A stretch of 64,000 nucleotides of DNA from NCBI GenBank assembly GCA_051892935.1, contig JBJFGS010000025.1, positions 80,813 to 144,812 on the forward strand, in the 5' to 3' direction. Positions 17,337 to 35,880 of the stretch are shown in pieces. A program made the translations under genes and the position numbers. The stretch is from Candidatus Coprovivens sp. GTDB taxonomy: Bacteria > Bacillota_I > Bacilli_A > RF39 > UBA660. Position 1 is the first letter of the stretch; each line of letters opens with the position of its first letter. The notes beneath the pieces were generated by a model. It had not been told where the DNA came from and made no database searches. It saw nothing but the letters and a program-made list of their open reading frames with translations.

Positions 17337-17408
17337 AAAATACCTAAAAAAAATAAAAAAATATCAAATTTTCTTATATTTTGTTATAATTAATTATAGG
17401 TGATCAAT

Positions 17409-18608
17409 ATGGAAGTACTTGCAGACAAACTAAGACCACAATGTATCAACGACATAATTGGTCAAAAACATCTTGTTGGTGAAAATAAAATAATCAGAAA
17501 TTTAGTAGAAAATAATCACATTGTAAGTATGATATTATATGGAAAACCAGGTATAGGAAAAACTTCAATAGCTTGTGCCATTGCTCAAGAAATAAAAAAA
17601 CCATACCGTATGTTAAATGCAACCATAAATAACAAGCAAGACTTTGATATAGTAATTGAAGAAGCTAAAATGAACGGTGAAATGATTGTTATAATGGATG
17701 AAATACATCGTCTAAATAAAGACAAACAAGACTTATTACTTCCATATATTGAAAATGGTTTAATAATTCTTATAGGAATGACAACATCGAATCCATATCA
17801 TAAAATAAATCCAGCAATTAGAAGTCGTTGTCAAATATTCGAATTAAAAGAACTTACAATAGAAGATATAAAAGAAGGACTAGACAGAGCATCAAAGCAT
17901 TTAAAAGGTCTTATAATAGACGAAGATGCCAAAAATACAATTGCTCGTTTATCATCAGGTGATTTAAGGAACGCCATAAATTTACTGGAAGTATCATATT
18001 ATGCTACTAAAGATAAACATATAACATTAGAAGTCGTTGAAAAAATAAATGCCAAAGCTGTCTTTTTTTCAGATGCTAATGAAGATGCCCACTACGATGT
18101 ATTATCAGGACTTCAAAAATCAATAAGAGGATCAGATGTTGATGCATCACTACACTACTTAGCTAGATTAATTACCGAAGGAGATTTAGATAGTATATAT
18201 AGAAGATTAAGCGTTATCGCTTATGAAGATATAGGGCTTGCAAATCCAGGAATAGGACCTAAAGTAATTGCAGCTATCGAAGCGGCAGAACTTGTTGGAC
18301 TACCAGAAGCTAGAATACCATTAGGAACTATTGTTACAGAAATGGCCTTAAGCCCTAAAAGTAATAGCGCCCACATTGCCCTAGATGCTGCACTATCAGA
18401 TATAGAATCAGGAACAACGGGAAACTTACCAGAACACATAAAAACAAATTCGCCACTATATAAGTACCCTCACGACTATCCAAATGCTTGGGTAAATCAA
18501 CAATATCTTCCAGATAACATAAAAAATAAAAAATACTATAAACCTAAAAACAATAAATACGAATTAAATTTAAATAAAATACATTCAGAAATGAAAGGTG
18601 GAAAATAA
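17409..18608 (+). CDS. rarA: Replication-associated recombination protein A (RarA/MgsA)
   Basis: Walker A GKPGIGKTS, DEIHRLNK, and the C-terminal HYDVLSGLQKSIRGSDVDASLHYLARL typical of RarA. Confidence 0.9.
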   Translation: MEVLADKLRPQCINDIIGQKHLVGENKIIRNLVENNHIVSMILYGKPGIGKTSIACAIAQEIKKPYRMLNATINNKQDFDIVIEEAKMNGEMIVIMDEIHRLNKDKQDLLLPYIENGLIILIGMTTSNPYHKINPAIRSRCQIFELKELTIEDIKEGLDRASKHLKGLIIDEDAKNTIARLSSGDLRNAINLLEVSYYATKDKHITLEVVEKINAKAVFFSDANEDAHYDVLSGLQKSIRGSDVDASLHYLARLITEGDLDSIYRRLSVIAYEDIGLANPGIGPKVIAAIEAAELVGLPEARIPLGTIVTEMALSPKSNSAHIALDAALSDIESGTTGNLPEHIKTNSPLYKYPHDYPNAWVNQQYLPDNIKNKKYYKPKNNKYELNLNKIHSEMKGGK

Positions 18609-19629: not shown

Positions 19630-19860
19630 CTATTCAGTAGTCTTATCCTCATCATGTTCATCTTCATATAAATCTAAATAATCATTTATAGTTTCTTTAA
19701 TCTTATTAGCTTCCTCTTCATCCTTAGCATTAGATAGTAAAAAATCTAAATAAGTCGTTTTTTCACAAAAAGTTAAATCAGGATTAGTAAGAGTACTATC
19801 TTTCATAACTTCAGAAACATTTTCTAATTCTTCATTTTCATTCATGATAACCACTTCCAT
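19630..19860 (-). CDS. Small acidic protein (76 aa)
   Basis: Overlaps the 3' end of the ThiF-family gene by 23 nt. Glu/Asp-rich; no motif recognised. Confidence 0.5.
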   Translation of the reverse strand: MEVVIMNENEELENVSEVMKDSTLTNPDLTFCEKTTYLDFLLSNAKDEEEANKIKETINDYLDLYEDEHDEDKTTE

Positions 19861-20533
19861 TATTAATTATATCATTAAAAACATAACTTGCGATACAAAA
19901 ACCAGCAGCATTAGGCACAAAACTTACAGAACCAGGAGTTCTAGACTGAATCTTCCTAGGTAATTCTTGAGAACACAAAACAGGTAATTTATACTTAATG
20001 CCATTATCTCTCATCATCTTACGAATAACTTTAGCAACAGGATCATTCTGCGTTTTCCATATATTAGTAATCTCTAATTTAGTAGGATCAACTCTATTAC
20101 CAGTACCCATACTACTAATAATTCTTATATTATATTGTAAAGCTTTCTTTATTAATAATAACTTTGTTGACATAGTATCACAACAATCAATAATATAATC
20201 AAACTTAGAATAATCTAAAACGTCAATATTAGCTTCATTTAAAAACATTTCATAAGAATCAACACTTATATCATGATTAATCAATTTAGCTCTTAAAGAA
20301 GCTTCATTTACTTTAGAACAACCTATATTATTAATATTACACAATAATTGTCTATTTAAATTAGATTTACTAAATACATCACCATCTACTATAGTTAATC
20401 TCTTAATCCCCATTCTAACTAAAGCTTCAAAACAAGCCCCACCTACTCCACCAACACCAACAATTAAAATATTACTATTACAAAAAGCATTCAGCTCATC
20501 ATCACTAAAAAGTAATTTACAACGTTCCAACAT
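19838..20533 (-). CDS. tcdA: ThiF/MoeB-fold protein, TcdA/YrvM-like (tRNA t6A dehydratase family)
   Basis: ILIVGVGGVGGACFEALVRMGIKRLTIVDGDVFSKSNLNRQ nucleotide-binding fold. About 230 aa, the YrvM size. Start set at the ATG at 20533 after gggtga. Confidence 0.75.
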   Translation of the reverse strand: MLERCKLLFSDDELNAFCNSNILIVGVGGVGGACFEALVRMGIKRLTIVDGDVFSKSNLNRQLLCNINNIGCSKVNEASLRAKLINHDISVDSYEMFLNEANIDVLDYSKFDYIIDCCDTMSTKLLLIKKALQYNIRIISSMGTGNRVDPTKLEITNIWKTQNDPVAKVIRKMMRDNGIKYKLPVLCSQELPRKIQSRTPGSVSFVPNAAGFCIASYVFNDIINNGSGYHE

Positions 20534-20577
20534 AAAATCACCCAATAAAGTATATCATATTTTAAAACACAAAAAAA

Positions 20578-20746
20578 CTCAAGGGATACCTACCTGTGAT
20601 AAAAAACCTGCACTAAACAGGTGGGCATCACATGAACTGCTTTAGGATCCCTACACTTAAAAAGCAAGGTCTTCAACACCACAGTCAATTAGATTCCCAA
20701 TAAATCACTTACTCGGTTTTTATGAAAAGTAAGCACTTACCTTGAG
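20578..20746 (-). ncRNA. Unassigned structured-RNA candidate (cis-leader of tcdA or independent sRNA)
   Basis: About 40% G+C by hand count, inside an otherwise very AT-rich gap. Closed by the 7-bp helix ctcaagg (20578-20584) / ccttgag (20740-20746). Internal hairpins include gtgat..acctg-tttagtg-caggt..atcac. On the minus strand it is followed by ttttttt. Confidence 0.4.
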
Positions 20747-20806
20747 TAATTAAAGTATAACATAAAAAAAGGAATAATACTAGTACTATTCACTTCCTTT
20801 ACACAT

Positions 20807-22813
20807 TTACCCAACAGGTGGAATAAAATTAGGTTTAATTGTTCCATTATTACTAACTTGACCATTTGAAGAAACATTCGGCATCATCATATCTGGTTTA
20901 GAATTATCATAAAAATTAGTAATAACTTGAGATTGAACTTCGTTAGTAGGCTGAGAAACAACATTACCTGTATCATTAGCAGATTTTGCATTTACCTGAG
21001 AAACAGCTACACCTCCACCACTCTGTTGATTACCAGAATTATTAGAATTAGCAGCCGTTCCATGAACTTTCCAACAATTATTAACATCACATGAATTAGA
21101 ATTAGGTGCAGGGTTAGGCATTTCCATTTTTATAACCATTGGTAGCTTAAATGCTCCACCAAATCCAACACAATTACCTGGCTGTAAAATTTTCTGCTTT
21201 TCAATAACATCAGCAGAAATATTAGGTAACATCGTTCTAATATATTCAATATCCTTAGGATGTGTCATTTTAAATATTAAGAAATTACTACATTGAGCAA
21301 TAACTGTTTCTGATATTTCTACAGGTCTTTGCGAAATTATATTAAGTAAAACTCCATACTTACGACCTTCTTTAGCAATTCTATCAAATATATTATATCC
21401 AATTAAGAAAACATCTGCATCCTTTTGAACATATCTATGAGCTTCTTCCAAAAACAAATGAAACGGAATTTGTGCTCTTTGTTTTCTAGTCTTACAAAAA
21501 TCAAAGAATATTCTAGCAATAATTTTAACAATAATCTTCGCTTGAGTATCATCAATATCTTCCAAATTAATATTAATAACTTGTGCTTTCTTATTACCAA
21601 CAGCAACTAACGAAGCAATATATGTTTCATAAGAAATATAAGTATCACATTTATATATATTAGCAATTTTACTATTTATCAAAGAATTTAATCTAACTTT
21701 TAATAACATAGAATCATCATATAATTGTTCATTACTTTGGAAACCTTCACTTATTAAAGTAAACTCTAAAGCCGCAGCAAAATCTCTCATTGAATAAAAA
21801 GCATTAACTGGTTCTTCAGTCATTTCCAAATCTTCATCAATATGTTTTAAAATATAATCAGTAATTAAAACAGATTCTCCAAAATTACCATTACTATCTA
21901 TTTCAAAACACTCAGATAACGTTCTAGTATAACCCAATCCTTGAATAACACTATCAAAATTAAAATCGTTAGTATGGCATACTTCTAATACCTTAAATAT
22001 TTCATTTTTCTTATTAGCAGTAATTTGATTACTATATAAAATAGCAATTAATGCTTTCGCTATTAAATGATCTTTATATCTATTAGCTACTTCATCATCT
22101 TTACTAAATATTCTAGTTAACTTTAAAGACCTTTCTATGATAGGAATTTGACTATGTTTATCTGCTTGTAACATAATAGTTAAATCATCCATGTTTAATA
22201 AATGAAAAGGAATCTTTAATTCGTAATCAGATTCTTCTTGAATATTAGTTGTAATAAATTTATAACTATAATTAGGATTAATCTTACCTAAATCTCTAAA
22301 AGCAGTCTTATATTCACCATAAGCATCAAAAATGAAAATATTAGCATTATAAGAAACTAAATTAGGATTAGAAAAGATATTTTGAACTAATCTTGCAACC
22401 CCACATGACTTACCTGAACCAGTATTTCCAAATACTGCCATATGATTAGCAAATAGATTATTAATATCAGCAAAAACATCATAATCAGTATAAATAGAGC
22501 TTCTTCCTAATTTAAATGTTGTCTCATCATAAACCCCAACAATAGCACTAAGTTCTTGATCATTAATAGTTCTTATTTTACTAGATAAAACAGGCTTTCT
22601 AATAACACCTGATACATATCTCCCATTCATAAATTCCCCAAGAAATCTTATTTTAATTATTTCATCAGTAACTTCTTCTACTTCACCCAAAATAGCTTGA
22701 TTTGGAGCTTCAAAAACTACATGGACATTCATTAAATCTCCCATTTCTTCAGCTTTAGCTATAGTAGTAACGTGAGCTACGTTTCCAGAAATAAATTTAA
22801 TATTACCAAACAT
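20807..22813 (-). CDS. HerA/DUF87-type P-loop ATPase with low-complexity C-terminal tail
   Basis: N-terminal barrel-like GNVAHVTTIAKAEEMGDLMNVHVVFEAPNQAILGEVEEV. Walker A FGNTGSGKS, Walker B HLFLEEAHRY, then RKYGVLLNIISQRP. The last ~95 aa are Asn/Ser/Gln/Gly-rich. Start at the ATG at 22813 after agaggtg. Confidence 0.8.
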   Translation of the reverse strand: MFGNIKFISGNVAHVTTIAKAEEMGDLMNVHVVFEAPNQAILGEVEEVTDEIIKIRFLGEFMNGRYVSGVIRKPVLSSKIRTINDQELSAIVGVYDETTFKLGRSSIYTDYDVFADINNLFANHMAVFGNTGSGKSCGVARLVQNIFSNPNLVSYNANIFIFDAYGEYKTAFRDLGKINPNYSYKFITTNIQEESDYELKIPFHLLNMDDLTIMLQADKHSQIPIIERSLKLTRIFSKDDEVANRYKDHLIAKALIAILYSNQITANKKNEIFKVLEVCHTNDFNFDSVIQGLGYTRTLSECFEIDSNGNFGESVLITDYILKHIDEDLEMTEEPVNAFYSMRDFAAALEFTLISEGFQSNEQLYDDSMLLKVRLNSLINSKIANIYKCDTYISYETYIASLVAVGNKKAQVININLEDIDDTQAKIIVKIIARIFFDFCKTRKQRAQIPFHLFLEEAHRYVQKDADVFLIGYNIFDRIAKEGRKYGVLLNIISQRPVEISETVIAQCSNFLIFKMTHPKDIEYIRTMLPNISADVIEKQKILQPGNCVGFGGAFKLPMVIKMEMPNPAPNSNSCDVNNCWKVHGTAANSNNSGNQQSGGGVAVSQVNAKSANDTGNVVSQPTNEVQSQVITNFYDNSKPDMMMPNVSSNGQVSNNGTIKPNFIPPVG

Positions 22814-22870
22814 AACCAACACCTCTTTTATTATATACAACTATATCTTAACACAAAACAAAAATAAATT

Positions 22871-22901
22871 AAATAAAAAAGAACTATTTTTCCTAGTTCT
22901 T
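22871..22901 (-). terminator. Rho-independent terminator
   Basis: On the minus strand: aagaacta-ggaaaaa-tagttctt followed by tttt. It overlaps the stop of the 609-aa gene. Confidence 0.65.
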
Positions 22902-24722
22902 TAATTTAACTTTATCATTCTGTATAATAGAATTTCTAAATATAGAATTCCTTATTTTATTAATATATTGACCATATAAATCAGGATTGAATTCCTTAAT
23001 AACATTTACAGCTCTATCAAACCTCAAACTATTAATGCCACTAACATTTAAATAATGAGTTTTACTTATGTAATCACCATTTATAAACTCTCTTATTATA
23101 AAAGAATGATGTTTTAACATTAATTCATCAACATACTGACGTCTAATTAATATACTACACGCTAACTCATCATATAATTTCTTTTGAACTAATAACACAT
23201 CACTTTTCAAAGAAGGATACAAAATATTTAAAGAAGCACACATATATTTAAAATCATCTAAACTAAAATTCTCTTCCTGATACATTAGTAAAGAACCATT
23301 ATCAGAAATAACATTAATCATTTCCTTTATATGTATTAACCCATAAGAAGCAAAATATTGATTAAATACACCATCTAAATAGTTTTTCCATTCTTTTATA
23401 GAAATGTATTTATAACCAACCATTTTTCTAATAAATTCCAAATATGCTTTATGAATAATATCTCTATTATGAATATCTGCATATATATCTTTTTTCCATT
23501 CAAGTAAAATTAAATCAAAAGTATTCTTCTTTACTTCATCACTATCAAAGAATATATTTCTACCAAAATACTTTTTATCCCTAGAATAAAACCACTTAAC
23601 AACATCATAAAAAGTATCTTGATATTCTTCACTAACATTTAAATAAATAAAATAATTTATAGTTACAGAAATAGGTCTTTTCAACTCTTCAAGTAAATAA
23701 TCATAATTACTTAATACATACTCTTTCTTTCGATTATAATTATCAAAAGAAAGAGCAAATTCATTTACTTCTCCTTTCCATTCTTCTCCCTTTATACTTA
23801 AACTTTTAGATTTACCTAAATATTCACGAAAACAATCAAAATTACAAAAAGAATCTCTATCATTATTTAAAATAATATATAATAATTCCCTGTTCAATAA
23901 AGAATATTTAGAATAATAAAAAGAACTAAAATTACTGCCAACAGTACTATTATAAAACTCTATAAACTCATCTAAAGTAAAATATAAATGACTACTAGTA
24001 TATTCTTTATAAGTAAGTAAAACACTCTTTCTTAAAACATCTCTATCAAAACTATTATCAATAATTAACATTATATTTTTAAATAATAAAGATAAATTTG
24101 ATACATCAAATAATCTAATATTTTCATAATCCTTAATAAAGAAAGAAATATCATCGAAAGTAATACCAAGTAATCTAAAATTATTAAGTAAAAACTTAAT
24201 ATCATAACAGCACATAAAAGAAACAGCTTTTTTCTTTCTTAAAACATTCTCCTTCTCATTATAAATATCTAAAAAACAATTATATAAATCATATATAGTT
24301 AAACATTTATTTAAAGCACTATAAGAAATAATATCATCATTAATAACATTTTCTATTAAAGAAGAAGAAAAAAGCTTTAAAACGCCTTTAAATACATCAA
24401 TATTACTAGATTGTAATAAATAATAAATAATAATATTTCTAACATCAAAATCTAAACAAACTTCATCCATTTCATAAAGTATCAATTCTCTACTACAAGT
24501 AAAATCAAGTAATTCAAAATCATCCATAAAATGATCAGAATAACAAAGTAATAAATCATTAATATCATCACTAGAAAAACTATCTTTACTCAATATATTC
24601 CTAAGTAATACTACTTCATCACTCTCTCCATATAAAAAATAAAGATTACTAAAAGCTCTTTTCTTCAACAATATAATCTTTTTAAAAACATATTCACTTA
24701 AAAAAGACTTTATATCATTCAT
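22893..24722 (-). CDS. Large protein of unknown function, paralog A (609 aa)
   Basis: RBS aggagg. Shares blocks with the 767-aa neighbour: DDINDLLLCYSDH, LGITFDDI, YLLEELKRPI...YFIYLNV, KKYFGRNIF. Confidence 0.8.
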   Translation of the reverse strand: MNDIKSFLSEYVFKKIILLKKRAFSNLYFLYGESDEVVLLRNILSKDSFSSDDINDLLLCYSDHFMDDFELLDFTCSRELILYEMDEVCLDFDVRNIIIYYLLQSSNIDVFKGVLKLFSSSLIENVINDDIISYSALNKCLTIYDLYNCFLDIYNEKENVLRKKKAVSFMCCYDIKFLLNNFRLLGITFDDISFFIKDYENIRLFDVSNLSLLFKNIMLIIDNSFDRDVLRKSVLLTYKEYTSSHLYFTLDEFIEFYNSTVGSNFSSFYYSKYSLLNRELLYIILNNDRDSFCNFDCFREYLGKSKSLSIKGEEWKGEVNEFALSFDNYNRKKEYVLSNYDYLLEELKRPISVTINYFIYLNVSEEYQDTFYDVVKWFYSRDKKYFGRNIFFDSDEVKKNTFDLILLEWKKDIYADIHNRDIIHKAYLEFIRKMVGYKYISIKEWKNYLDGVFNQYFASYGLIHIKEMINVISDNGSLLMYQEENFSLDDFKYMCASLNILYPSLKSDVLLVQKKLYDELACSILIRRQYVDELMLKHHSFIIREFINGDYISKTHYLNVSGINSLRFDRAVNVIKEFNPDLYGQYINKIRNSIFRNSIIQNDKVKLKN

Positions 24723-24802: not shown

Positions 24803-27052
24803 TTACTTTTTACCAACATGTTTAACACCATCTAATTCATCTAAATATTCTTTAGTAATCTCTCCCTTTAAAACTTTATTCAAAGCTCCTTTATACAAAG
24901 AATAATAATTAGATAATCCTTTAATCCTTAAAAACCTTAAAGCAAGCTCTTTTTCTTCAAGACTAACTTCATGCATAATATCATCAATTTTAATAATAAG
25001 TCTTTCATTAAATATCTCTTGATTAGTAACTAGTCTACTAGATTTAACCATTTTTTCAAAACTTCTAAATTGTCTAATATTAATACTATTCAACTTTTTA
25101 GAATTAACTACTAAAACAGTAAATTTATCAAAAGGCAAATTAGTTAACAAACAATAATCTAAAAAAGTAAAAGGTCTAACTATACCATTATCATTTACAC
25201 CTTCAACTAAAGCTTTTAAAACATAATCAACCATTTTCATAAGTACAGCATATCTTTGAGATTTTAACATATCAAACTTATTAATAAACTGAATGTATAA
25301 ATTATAATCATTCTCCATAACATTATTCAAAATCTTATCAAATTGAGTTTCACTAAGTCCTTCTTCTTCCAAAAAAGCTTCTTTACTTTTGTAATCCTTA
25401 TTTAAAAATCTTTCTAAAAGGATAGAACACTTTCTTGCTTCTTCCATTTTTTTATCAAGGTTTCTCAAATCTAAAACTCTATTCTTATCATTTGTATATA
25501 CATCATATAAAATAACTAATTTATTTTCCAATTCAGGATGTTTACTCTTAAACGCATCAAAACAAAGATCGAAATCATCAACTAAACCAATTTCTTCAGC
25601 TTTTAAATATATATTATCCACTTGATTGACTAATGACAAAAGTATCATCATTCTATCATAACCAATTCTATAATAGTAATCCTTTTCCAATAGTTTCATT
25701 TGATTATTCCAAGAACTTTTAGAAATATATCTTTTACCTAAAAATTTACATACAATATCATAGTATTCTTTATATATAGCATTACGATTAACAAAATCTA
25801 AAGTAATCTTTTCTCTACAATTATCCAAAATATCTTTATAAGTATTTTGTTGTTCTTCGACACTAGATTTTAAAACATTTCTTCCGAAGTATTCATAATC
25901 ATTCTCACAAATCCAAGAAACTATTTCTTTAAAAAAAACAATATCTTCAACATTAACATTTAATAAAACAAAATAATCAAAAGTAAATCTAATAGGTTTC
26001 TTTAATTCTTCTAATAAATATGAATATTCTTTTAGAACTCTTTCTTTATTATGATAGTTTTTAACATCTAATTTACACCAATAATCGATAAATGATTTAT
26101 ACCTATTAGTATCGCTTAAAAAAGAACTATGTTTACTAAAAATATCGTATATACCAGAAGAGCCTTGAACCATAAATCTAAAACTAATGCTTTTCATTAT
26201 TGTATAAAACAAATCTACTGACAATAAAACAGGACCATCACTATTTATATAAAAAGAACTAAAATCATCTTTAAAAGTATCATTATAATAAGAAATAAAA
26301 TCTTCATCTAAGAAATTAATATGTAATTTAGAATACTTATCGTATTCACTAATTACTTTATTATATAATTTTTCATCACCCAAAGTTCTATGTTTAATAC
26401 TAAATTGATTATTAAGTATTCTCCGACATTCTTTTTCATTTAATGATATATTCTTTTGATCAGCCAAAGAAAAAAAGTCATCAATATCATCAAAAGTAAT
26501 ACCTATTTTTTTAAATTTATCTGAAAAGAAAGAGTAATCAATTAATCCCATTAAAGCAATAACTTTCATCTTTTTTTCTTCTATATTAGAAATATTACAT
26601 ATATCATTAACTAAAATATATAAGTCATATAAAGACTCACCAATATGCAAATCAACAACACTCTCAATAGAATCACTTCTTTTAAAGAAACAATCATAAG
26701 GAATACATTGTAAAACCCTTAAATTAAAGTCAAAATCCTTTATACTTAATAAATAATATAAAATTAAATTAGTAATATTAAAAGTAGTCCCAAATTGTTC
26801 AAAATCATAGTATAATTCCTTATTATTTAATACTAATTCCAATATTTCTTCATTACTTAATAAATGATCAGAATAACAAAGTAATAAATCATTAATATCA
26901 TCTAATGAATAAACACTCTTACCTATTATATCTTTATAAGTATTATAATCCTCATTACTATCAAAATAATAATATTTTTTCAAATCTTTCTGAGTAGCAA
27001 TTTTAGCACAAAAAGAAATACGCAAACGTTGTATGATTTCTTCAAAATCCAT
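24803..27052 (-). CDS. Large protein of unknown function, paralog B (~749 aa)
   Basis: Start set at the ATG at 27052 (MDFEEIIQRL) after taggtga. Paralogous to 22893-24722, with a ~150-aa C-terminal extension. Confidence 0.8.
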   Translation of the reverse strand: MDFEEIIQRLRISFCAKIATQKDLKKYYYFDSNEDYNTYKDIIGKSVYSLDDINDLLLCYSDHLLSNEEILELVLNNKELYYDFEQFGTTFNITNLILYYLLSIKDFDFNLRVLQCIPYDCFFKRSDSIESVVDLHIGESLYDLYILVNDICNISNIEEKKMKVIALMGLIDYSFFSDKFKKIGITFDDIDDFFSLADQKNISLNEKECRRILNNQFSIKHRTLGDEKLYNKVISEYDKYSKLHINFLDEDFISYYNDTFKDDFSSFYINSDGPVLLSVDLFYTIMKSISFRFMVQGSSGIYDIFSKHSSFLSDTNRYKSFIDYWCKLDVKNYHNKERVLKEYSYLLEELKKPIRFTFDYFVLLNVNVEDIVFFKEIVSWICENDYEYFGRNVLKSSVEEQQNTYKDILDNCREKITLDFVNRNAIYKEYYDIVCKFLGKRYISKSSWNNQMKLLEKDYYYRIGYDRMMILLSLVNQVDNIYLKAEEIGLVDDFDLCFDAFKSKHPELENKLVILYDVYTNDKNRVLDLRNLDKKMEEARKCSILLERFLNKDYKSKEAFLEEEGLSETQFDKILNNVMENDYNLYIQFINKFDMLKSQRYAVLMKMVDYVLKALVEGVNDNGIVRPFTFLDYCLLTNLPFDKFTVLVVNSKKLNSINIRQFRSFEKMVKSSRLVTNQEIFNERLIIKIDDIMHEVSLEEKELALRFLRIKGLSNYYSLYKGALNKVLKGEITKEYLDELDGVKHVGKK

Positions 27053-27125
27053 AAAATCATCACCTATCATTGTATAAATGATAACATAACAAAACATTCC
27101 GTGCAAATTAAAAAAGATTTATATT

Positions 27126-34380: not shown

Positions 34381-35649
34381 CTATCTACAATTTATATCTA
34401 AATAATCATCAATCTCTGCTTCTTTAACCATTGTTACTTCCTTAGTATGATTATCTTTAACTTGAATTTCTCCACCTACTAAATCTTCACTATTAAGTAT
34501 TACTAAAAATTTTGCATTTAATCTATCTGCCTGTTTAAATTGACCTTTTAAAGCTCTTCCCATATATTCAGTTTCAACACGTAATCCTTGTAATCTTAAA
34601 TCTTGCGTTAAAGCCATCGCATACTCTTTTTCAGTATCATTTACATATAAAATAAATGCATCTAACTCATTATTAATAGGTACTTCAATATTTTCTTTAT
34701 CCAAAGCCATAACAAGCCTACCCAGTCCACAAGCAAATCCAATACCAGGTGTAGATGGACCTCCTAAATTACTAACCAAAGTATCATATCTACCACCACC
34801 AGCTAAGACATTATTAGAACCAAAATCCTTAACTGTAGCTTCAATTTCAAATACAGTATGACAATAATAATCTAATCCTCTAACTATTTTAGGATCAACT
34901 TCATAATCAATATCTAAAACATCTAAATAATTTTGAACATCCATAAATCTATTTTTAGATTCTTCATTTAAGTAATCTAACATTACTGGAGCATTCTTAA
35001 TTATGTCATTTTCAGCATCAAATTTACAATCTAAGATACGTAATGGATTCTTTTTTAATCTCTCATTACAATCAGGACACAATTCACTTATATGAGGCTC
35101 AAAATAATCAATTAAAGCGTTTCTATAATTATCTCTAGATAGAGTATCACCTAAACTATTAATTTTAACTTTTATACCTTTTAACCCCAATAATTTAAAA
35201 ATATTAACAGCAACAGAAATAACTTCTGCATCAATAGCGGGATCATCACTACCAAGAACCTCAACCCCAAACTGCGTAAGTTCTCTATCTCTTCCAGATT
35301 GTGGTCTCTCATATCGATACATTGTTCCATTATAGTATAGTTTTACAGGTTGTATAGTATCTCCATACATTTTATTTTCAATAAAACTTCTAACAACACC
35401 AGCTGTTCCTTCTGGTCTTAAAGTCATATTTCTATCCCCACGATCAACAAAATCATAAGTTTCTTTAGACACTATATCTGTTGTATCTCCAACACCTCTA
35501 TGAAACAATTCCGTACTTTCAAAAATAGGTGTTCTAATCATTCCATAATTATATCTTTCCATTACTTCATCAACAACACGACTAACATATTGCCATTTTT
35601 TCATTTGTTCACCATACAAATCATAAGTTCCCTTAGGTTTAGTTATCAT
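34381..35649 (-). CDS. hisS: Histidine--tRNA ligase
   Basis: MITKPKGTYD start after ggagg. Motifs RPEGTAGVVR and MYRYERPQSGRDRELTQFGVE. The longer track ORF (to 35715) runs into the T-box terminator. Confidence 0.9.
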   Translation of the reverse strand: MITKPKGTYDLYGEQMKKWQYVSRVVDEVMERYNYGMIRTPIFESTELFHRGVGDTTDIVSKETYDFVDRGDRNMTLRPEGTAGVVRSFIENKMYGDTIQPVKLYYNGTMYRYERPQSGRDRELTQFGVEVLGSDDPAIDAEVISVAVNIFKLLGLKGIKVKINSLGDTLSRDNYRNALIDYFEPHISELCPDCNERLKKNPLRILDCKFDAENDIIKNAPVMLDYLNEESKNRFMDVQNYLDVLDIDYEVDPKIVRGLDYYCHTVFEIEATVKDFGSNNVLAGGGRYDTLVSNLGGPSTPGIGFACGLGRLVMALDKENIEVPINNELDAFILYVNDTEKEYAMALTQDLRLQGLRVETEYMGRALKGQFKQADRLNAKFLVILNSEDLVGGEIQVKDNHTKEVTMVKEAEIDDYLDINCR

Positions 35650-35664
35650 TATATCTCCTCCATA

Positions 35665-35880
35665 AATAAAAAAGGTACCTAAATAACGTAAGGACGAAAA
35701 ATTCCGCGGTGCCACCTTACTTTACTTAGGTACTCTCATATTTTTATTTTATCGCTCTTAATGCGTTCTTAATATCAGAAAGTTGTTTTTCATATATAAT
35801 CCAATAAGGCATTTCCACCATATAGCCCTCTCTTTTATTTTCAATATATACTACTCGTCTTTCAATAAGAAAAGTCTAAA
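35665..35880 (-). promoter_or_regulatory. T-box riboswitch leader of hisS-asnS-aspS-gatCAB
   Basis: Minus strand: Stem I with AGTA S-turn, AGAGAG bulge and distal tggtggaaa. T-box sequence aaggtggcaccgcgg. Terminator gtacctaagtaa...ttatttaggtac plus tttttt. Promoter TTGACT-17-TAAAAT (35912-35884). Confidence 0.85.

Follow-up and report, generated by a model that had tools for sequence, protein, structure and literature searches.

Introduction

6S RNA mimics an open promoter and binds the housekeeping RNA polymerase holoenzyme, from which it is released once a short RNA (pRNA), transcribed from the 5' side of its bubble, unwinds the proximal helix and refolds the molecule (PMC10578484, PMC8876501). 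The rearranged states differ between species: the 6S-1 RNA of Bacillus subtilis forms a 'central bubble collapse helix', while the free 6S RNA of Escherichia coli has no structure on the 3' side of its bubble and acquires a 9-bp extended hairpin when it is released (PMC8876501). Genomic context is known as well. The 6S-1 gene lies directly upstream of yrvM in B. subtilis, according to 2002 work as cited in PMC10578484 and PMC3923129, and rarA is a near neighbour of 6S throughout Lactobacillales and also of 6S-1 in B. subtilis (PMC8414754). In Lactobacillales, 6S RNA is a single-copy gene beside rarA, and AT-rich or divergent genera needed sub-threshold, synteny-guided searches for it to be found (PMC8414754).

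Here we analyse a locus in a genome of the gut bacterium Candidatus Coprovivens sp., within a 64-kb window (the whole stretch of DNA under study, 64,000 nucleotides). In an earlier note, made from the letters alone, positions 20578-20746 had been singled out as a GC-enriched structured element that matches no RNA class and may be either a riboswitch or leader for the adjacent ThiF-family gene or an independent sRNA. The element occupies a 261-nt gap between a HerA-like ATPase gene and this ThiF-family, TcdA-like gene, both on the minus strand; we take yrvM to be the gene now called tcdA. We conclude that the element is almost certainly a 6S RNA gene of the B. subtilis 6S-1 (bsrA) type in a low-GC gut Bacilli genome.

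Composition and family assignment

The G+C content of 20578-20746 is 39.6%, against 25.9% for the whole 64-kb window (standard deviation 4.8% in 169-nt windows), and a value as high is reached by only 0.6% of windows of the same length. As the sequences immediately beside it have G+C contents of 21.6% and 24.1%, the earlier hand count of about 40% in an otherwise AT-rich gap holds (39.6%, with flanks at 22-24%). The folding energy of the minus-strand RNA is -52.7 kcal/mol, whereas dinucleotide shuffles give -39.1 ± 3.95 kcal/mol (z = -3.45), and none of 200 shuffles folds as well. Composition, folding and the helices listed below together indicate that the GC-rich structured element is real, well beyond chance.

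At the default gathering thresholds, a scan with Rfam matched no family anywhere in the 64-kb window. When the threshold was relaxed from the gathering score to an E-value, the scan that had been proposed as a check of the element returned 6S/SsrS RNA (RF00013), end to end:

20571-20752, minus strand: 6S RNA gene (ssrS / bsrA-like, 6S-1 type), identified by the RF00013 match, 11 of 11 orthologous loci and covariation

The match covers model positions 1-187 of 187 and scores 41.3 bits, with E = 5.2e-7 in a scan of the 551-nt region and E = 6e-5 in a relaxed scan of the 64-kb window with all 4227 families. The RF00013 gathering cut-off is 46.4 bits, i.e. 5.1 bits above the score of this copy, which is why the default scan is silent on it. 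The 6S RNA thus went unrecognised only because its score is just under the Rfam cut-off, and the statement that the element matches no RNA class was wrong. The RF00013 alignment contains sequence signatures of the family, namely ACCGA in the 5' bubble, GGGA, and CCCACCUG...CAGGU. All 6S scans here were confined to the 64-kb window.

A score below the gathering cut-off could also be expected from an independent sRNA of a new class, only superficially 6S-like (for example a base-pairing regulator), as partial covariance-model scores can arise from AT-rich rod-like RNAs. The match at this locus, however, is full length and includes the family signatures, orthologues in the same genomic slot exceed the cut-off (up to 55.5 bits), and the gene order is that of the known 6S-1 locus. 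We consider a new class extremely improbable. The suggestion of an independent sRNA was nevertheless close to the truth, the family being the known 6S/SsrS one.

Three other weak Rfam matches, to snoZ175, Plastid-psbA-3 and Plastid-psbA-4 (E = 2.9-8.4), were dismissed as chance; the psbA matches are explained by the terminator hairpin at 20764-20800, which belongs to the HerA-like gene.

The window carries another AT-rich RNA element missed at the Rfam default cut-off. This is a T-box leader (RF00230) at 35687-35869 on the minus strand (70.7 bits against a gathering score of 93, E = 2.6e-13, full length over model positions 1-219), directly upstream of hisS, which encodes histidine--tRNA ligase (34381-35715; TIGR00442, 1.5e-143). 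A search of the whole 64-kb window for tRNA and tmRNA genes found none.

Conservation and covariation in related loci

Searching contigs from one genome per species with the TcdA-like protein yielded 11 related loci, with protein identities of 59-84%. All belong to uncultured gut Bacilli, i.e. genome bins labelled Candidatus Coprovivens or Erysipelotrichaceae, and the resulting alignment of 12 sequences (the window and the 11 loci) represents one fairly narrow clade. A full-length 6S match is located directly upstream of tcdA in all 11 related loci (39.2-55.5 bits). Six of these orthologues reach the RF00013 gathering score, and the other five are below it, like the window copy. Conservation upstream of tcdA, about which the earlier note had asked, therefore extends to 12 of 12 genomes. 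Mean column identity over the 12 loci is 87% in the RNA, against 61% in the upstream intergenic flank.

The consensus structure of the 12 sequences is a rod in which 95.9% of cells are standard pairs. Both sides change in 16 of its 51 pairs, compared with 5.3 ± 1.6 pairs in 500 column shuffles (0 of 500 reach 16). In a slid control, with 3' partners moved by 1-3 columns, only 1-5 pairs show such double changes. Most of the covariation falls in the closing and apical stems; the 3'-bubble hairpin, the GGG:CCC pairs and the GUGAU/AUCAC pentamers are invariant, and thus uninformative for or against pairing.

These results bear directly on the possibility that the element is a chance GC-rich patch or a functionless relic. 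The difference in conservation between the RNA and its flanking DNA (87% versus 61%) and a covariation far above both controls effectively refute it, and the promoter and U-run described below are conserved, in addition to the folding z-score of -3.45; we regard this possibility as practically nil. A lack of conservation and covariation in relatives had been named beforehand as what would speak against the element, which is in fact conserved and covarying across the 12 loci. Reading it as a conserved structured minus-strand non-coding RNA with a 3' U-run was correct, then, while the part of that reading that placed it in an unrecognised class was not.

Architecture of the RNA

With RNA nucleotide n corresponding to window position 20753 - n, the 12 sequences share a consensus fold of the classical 6S type, a rod with a closing stem, a central bubble and an apical stem. 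Its parts are the following:

20727-20747, minus strand: closing stem, 5' strand (nt 6-26), pairing with nt 158-177
20576-20595, minus strand: closing stem, 3' strand (nt 158-177), from consensus fold and covariation
20717-20722, minus strand: A-rich 5' strand of the bubble-proximal, P2-like helix (nt 31-36), pairing with U148-A153 (20605-20600)
20699-20716, minus strand: 5' side of the central bubble (nt 37-54, CCGAGUAAGUGAUUUAUU), unpaired in the consensus and nearly invariant
20696-20698, minus strand: G55-G57, pairing with C128-C130 (20625-20623), invariant in 12 of 12 sequences
20606-20622, minus strand: 3'-central-bubble hairpin ACCUGU-UUAGU-GCAGGU (nt 131-147), helix 8
20626-20695, minus strand: internal and apical stem-loop (nt 58-127), helices 4-7, including the actg/cagt helix

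The closing stem (helices 1 and 2) comprises 18 pairs, five of which show changes on both sides, with 92-93% of cells paired. The 7-bp closing helix ctcaagg/ccttgag, noticed from the letters alone, is present and forms part of this longer stem, which shows compensatory changes in relatives. Helix 3, the bubble-proximal A6:U6 helix, has six pairs that are 100% paired, two of them with changes on both sides. The stretch from A33 to U50 is an invariant block in the 12-sequence alignment, and nt 37-54 align to the bubble of the Rfam 6S model. On its apical side, the central bubble is closed by the three G:C pairs of G55-57:C128-130, which are the same as the GGG/CCC pairs of the Rfam consensus; the same kind of bubble closure has been described for 6S-2 (PMC3923129). 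Helix 8, the 3'-bubble hairpin, has six pairs, 100% paired and almost invariant. It corresponds to the acctg-tttagtg-caggt hairpin proposed earlier, which is thus real and invariant, and a pre-formed hairpin at this place is characteristic of B. subtilis 6S-1 (PMC8876501). The apical stem is irregular, and it is there that the proposed actg...cagt pairing turns out to be the best-covarying helix of the molecule (helix 5, with both-side changes in six of its seven pairs).

Two other proposed pairings fared less well. The gtaag-tg-cttac hairpin would have a 2-nt loop and shows A:C or A:A mismatches in most relatives; its bases belong instead to the closing stem, on the 5' side. The outer gtgat...atcac pairing is kept in 11 of the 12 sequences (in L011 only three of the four core positions pair), but it is absent from the consensus fold: as it competes with the covarying helix 4, it is not the ground state. 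Folding suggests that atcac more plausibly has the identical GUGAU of the 5' bubble as its partner, in an alternative conformer.

A simple terminator scan also marked the 3'-bubble hairpin (20622-20606) as terminator-like. We rejected this candidate, which lies inside the conserved RNA, because conserved sequence and the closing stem extend 30 nt beyond it.

Transcription signals and gene order

The following signals and genes adjoin the rod:

20754-20762, minus strand: extended -10 promoter TGtTATACT (TG at 20762-20761, hexamer at 20759-20754), a conserved motif
20571-20577, minus strand: U7 tract, directly after the closing stem
20764-20800, minus strand: terminator-like hairpin and T-run (AAAGGAAgTGAATA...TATTaTTCCTTTTTTT) of the HerA-like gene, read from the sequence
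20549-20557, minus strand: extended -10-like motif TGaTATACT before tcdA (ribosome-binding site GGGTGA at 20543-20538, ATG at 20533)
19838-20533, minus strand: ThiF-family, TcdA-like gene, the yrvM counterpart (Pfam ThiF, 1.9e-34; synteny in 11 loci)

The motif TGnTATA(A/C)T is found upstream of 6S in all 12 loci, 6-7 nt ahead of the closing stem and within a poorly conserved flank. Judging from the spacing, the predicted start of the 6S RNA is the A at 20747, which is the seventh nucleotide after the hexamer and the first base of the closing stem. At the other end, the seven T residues reported earlier on the minus strand are present at 20577-20571, and a T-run of at least five is found in 11 of the 12 loci (L011 has TCTTTT instead). 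The U7 tract is the likely site of intrinsic termination and the likely 3' end of the 6S RNA, so that the primary transcript probably extends from about A6 (20747) to the U-run (20577-20571), or ~171-177 nt. Promoter, closing stem and U-run together thus predict an independent RNA of about this size. On its upstream side, the 6S gene is separated from the HerA-like gene by the hairpin and T-run at 20764-20800, which begin (at 20800) 7 nt past the HerA-like stop codon (20807-20809); a chance Rfam match to a hairpin-plus-U 3'UTR model marks the same stem.

The best NCBIfam match of the ThiF-family gene is TcdA, at 107.5 bits, which is below the model cut-off of 304. Its ribosome-binding site GGGTGA is ~27 nt beyond the T-run, rather than the ~35 nt previously estimated. 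A TGnTATAAT-like motif precedes tcdA in 8 of the 12 loci, including the window. It is absent in L005, L006, L008 and L011, whose spacer between 6S and tcdA, only ~20-30 nt, is too short for it. A simple promoter scan of the same region of the window gave the overlapping candidate TTGAGT-17-TATGAT.

This arrangement is what makes a cis-acting function worth considering, i.e. that of a leader or riboswitch governing the ThiF/TcdA gene by ligand-dependent termination at the U-run. Indeed, the element is directly upstream of tcdA and on the same strand in 12 of 12 genomes, a stem and a U-run come ahead of the tcdA ribosome-binding site, and four loci (L005, L006, L008 and L011) show no separate tcdA promoter between U-run and start codon. 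The stem before the U-run, however, closes the entire ~170-nt rod rather than forming a switchable expression platform, and the consensus and covariation analysis of the 12 sequences revealed no conserved anti-terminator pairing that would compete with it; a single conserved rod accounts for all covarying pairs. The 6S alignment spans the element from one end to the other, and scanning the 551-nt region for riboswitch and leader families gave no match at E <= 10. Moreover, the element has its own invariant promoter, and tcdA has an extended -10 motif downstream of the U-run in 8 of the 12 loci. Finally, B. subtilis likewise has 6S and yrvM side by side, and there the RNA regulates polymerase in trans. 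With no family match, a promoter of its own, a rod-closing stem and a tcdA motif in 8 of 12 loci, the riboswitch or leader put forward in the earlier note is very unlikely.

Gene order provides further support for the 6S reading. Over the length of flank available in each locus, one order of genes is conserved: the HerA-like gene, 6S, tcdA, then gpsA and rarA (both on the other strand), then xerD. In the window, rarA is located at 17400-18608, ~2 kb from 6S. When the gene order of the 6S-1 locus was looked for, tcdA immediately downstream and rarA nearby were both found, in the window as well as in the loci with a long enough flank. With tcdA directly downstream and rarA near, the element is a positional as well as a structural orthologue of 6S-1.

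As 4 of the 12 loci show no separate tcdA promoter, some read-through from 6S into tcdA is possible, and the RNA may therefore not be strictly monocistronic. In E. coli, ssrS and ygfA are co-transcribed. By analogy with this pair, read-through into tcdA would be compatible with the identification as 6S RNA.

The upstream neighbourhood deserves a separate description. The HerA-like ATPase gene (20807-22840, minus strand; Pfam DUF87/HerA) is found beside 6S in 11 of 11 related genomes, with 81-92% identity; kept in all of them, it behaves as a core gene, not as a variable defence-island gene. Its product matches the PADLOC HerA model (3e-110) but stays far below the NCBIfam cut-offs for anti-phage HerA (180 bits versus 850), and its C-terminal ~80 residues form a low-complexity tail rich in N, S, G and Q. 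Directly upstream, on the same strand, are two large paralogous ORFs, at 22893-24722 (minus strand, 609 aa) and 24803-27106 (minus strand, 767 aa), which share 30% identity (E = 3e-62). Pfam and PADLOC searches of both ORFs gave no match. A homologue of the 609-aa protein (46% identity) is present at the same position in one related locus (L001).

Predicted pRNA and refolding

For comparison with known 6S RNAs, we take the pRNA start site to be U44 in GAGCCGAU for E. coli. That of B. subtilis 6S-1 is C40 in GACCGAAC. When projected via the Rfam alignment, U44 and C40 point to a start at G41/U42 in the window RNA, which leads to the following predictions:

20711-20724, minus strand: predicted pRNA template (nt 29-42, start at U42 = 20711), placed via the Rfam alignment
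20704-20708, minus strand: G45UGAU49 in the 5' bubble, predicted collapse-helix partner of A153UCAC157 (20600-20596)

The predicted pRNA, 5'-ACUCGGUUUUUAUG-3', would start opposite U42 (20711) and open with ACUCGGUU..., a start placed solely by projection through the Rfam model and the published motif. It has GG at positions 5/6, and the template base that immediately precedes the start is A43; both features belong to a motif reported for Lactobacillales, B. subtilis and others (PMC8414754). Positions 9/10 are UU, not the AA that is conserved in Lactobacillales (PMC8414754).

We infer that the 6S RNA of this genome is expressed, binds polymerase, directs pRNA synthesis from this site and refolds, along the lines described for the family. 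Its transcription on the minus strand would begin at an extended -10 promoter of its own and end at the U-run after the closing stem. The ~175-nt RNA would fold into a rod whose closing and apical stems flank a large central bubble imitating an open promoter. As in other members of the family, it would lodge in the active-site cleft of the housekeeping (sigma-A) holoenzyme of RNA polymerase, keeping the enzyme off DNA promoters, typically when growth slows. Once nucleotides are back, the polymerase would copy the 5' side of the bubble into a short pRNA opposite U42, and this pRNA would unzip the bubble-proximal A/U helix. The freed AUCAC could then pair with GUGAU of the 5' bubble, forming the collapse helix, and the refolded RNA would be let go.

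Folding with nt 29-42 (or 35-42) blocked yields a minimum free energy structure that has the G45-U49/A153-C157 helix, with the 3'-bubble hairpin intact, and so resembles the refolded state of B. subtilis 6S-1 (PMC8876501). The GUGAU and AUCAC pentamers are present in 12 of 12 sequences; being invariant, they provide no covariation by which the collapse helix could be judged.

GUGAU is found twice, once on either side of the bubble, at nt 45-49 (20704-20708) and at nt 122-126 (20626-20631), and each copy can pair with the AUCAC at nt 153-157 (20596-20600). Because of the second GUGAU, an extension of the 3' hairpin similar to that of E. coli is formally possible; this alternative pairing of GUGAU (122-126) with AUCAC can form in 11 of the 12 sequences.

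Discussion

The element described here shares many features with B. subtilis 6S-1 RNA (bsrA/ssrSA). Both are rods of ~180-190 nt with a closing stem, an open 5' bubble, a pre-formed 3'-bubble hairpin and an apical stem. In both, the template runs (as predicted here) from the 5' bubble into the proximal helix, with GG at pRNA positions 5/6, and the distal part of the 5' bubble can potentially pair with the proximal helix's 3' strand to give a collapse helix. Both genes are directly upstream of yrvM/tcdA, with rarA near. There are also differences. The element is much more AT-rich than 6S-1, so that its proximal helix is a plain A6:U6 run. Its upstream neighbour is the HerA-like ATPase gene instead of aspS, and its predicted initiating nucleotide is A (template U42) instead of G (template C40). 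Finally, unlike in 6S-1, the U-run directly follows the closing stem, and the score is below the Rfam cut-off.

The likeness to E. coli ssrS is that of members of the same family sharing open-promoter mimicry, and the ACCGA-type template motif aligns through the Rfam model. The possible co-transcription with the downstream gene recalls ssrS-ygfA. Unlike in E. coli, the small hairpin is pre-formed here, and the predicted rearrangement is the collapse helix. With the 6S RNAs of Lactobacillales, the element has in common the canonical fold, the proximity of rarA, a rho-independent terminator at the 3' end and the pRNA motif with an A upstream of the start, and its recovery below the threshold with the help of synteny parallels that study (PMC8414754). 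The gene orders are different: Lactobacillales have rarA just before 6S and uspA after it, whereas here tcdA is downstream, with gpsA and rarA beyond it on the opposite strand. The predicted pRNA also differs at positions 9/10 (UU versus AA).

The element is thus an ordinary gene of an already known kind, neither an unknown class of RNA nor a riboswitch or leader for tcdA. It is conceivable, although we think it rather unlikely, that in the RFN20/Coprovivens-like lineage 6S and tcdA form a conserved, partly read-through unit, and also that the RNA can use either of two competing release conformers, the collapse helix of B. subtilis or the extended 3'-bubble hairpin of E. coli. Read-through would couple production of the tRNA ct6A-modification enzyme to transcription of 6S; a read-through unit or dual conformers would still be a small variation on known 6S biology.

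The value of this finding is mainly for annotation. Nearly all bacteria are expected to carry a 6S RNA, and a default Rfam scan overlooks this one, as 6S RNAs of very high AT content score slightly less than the family cut-off requires. A relaxed threshold combined with gene order (a position before tcdA/yrvM and near rarA) recovers 6S in uncultured gut Bacilli. Our understanding of 6S RNA itself is unchanged, and one candidate for an 'unknown RNA class' can be struck off.
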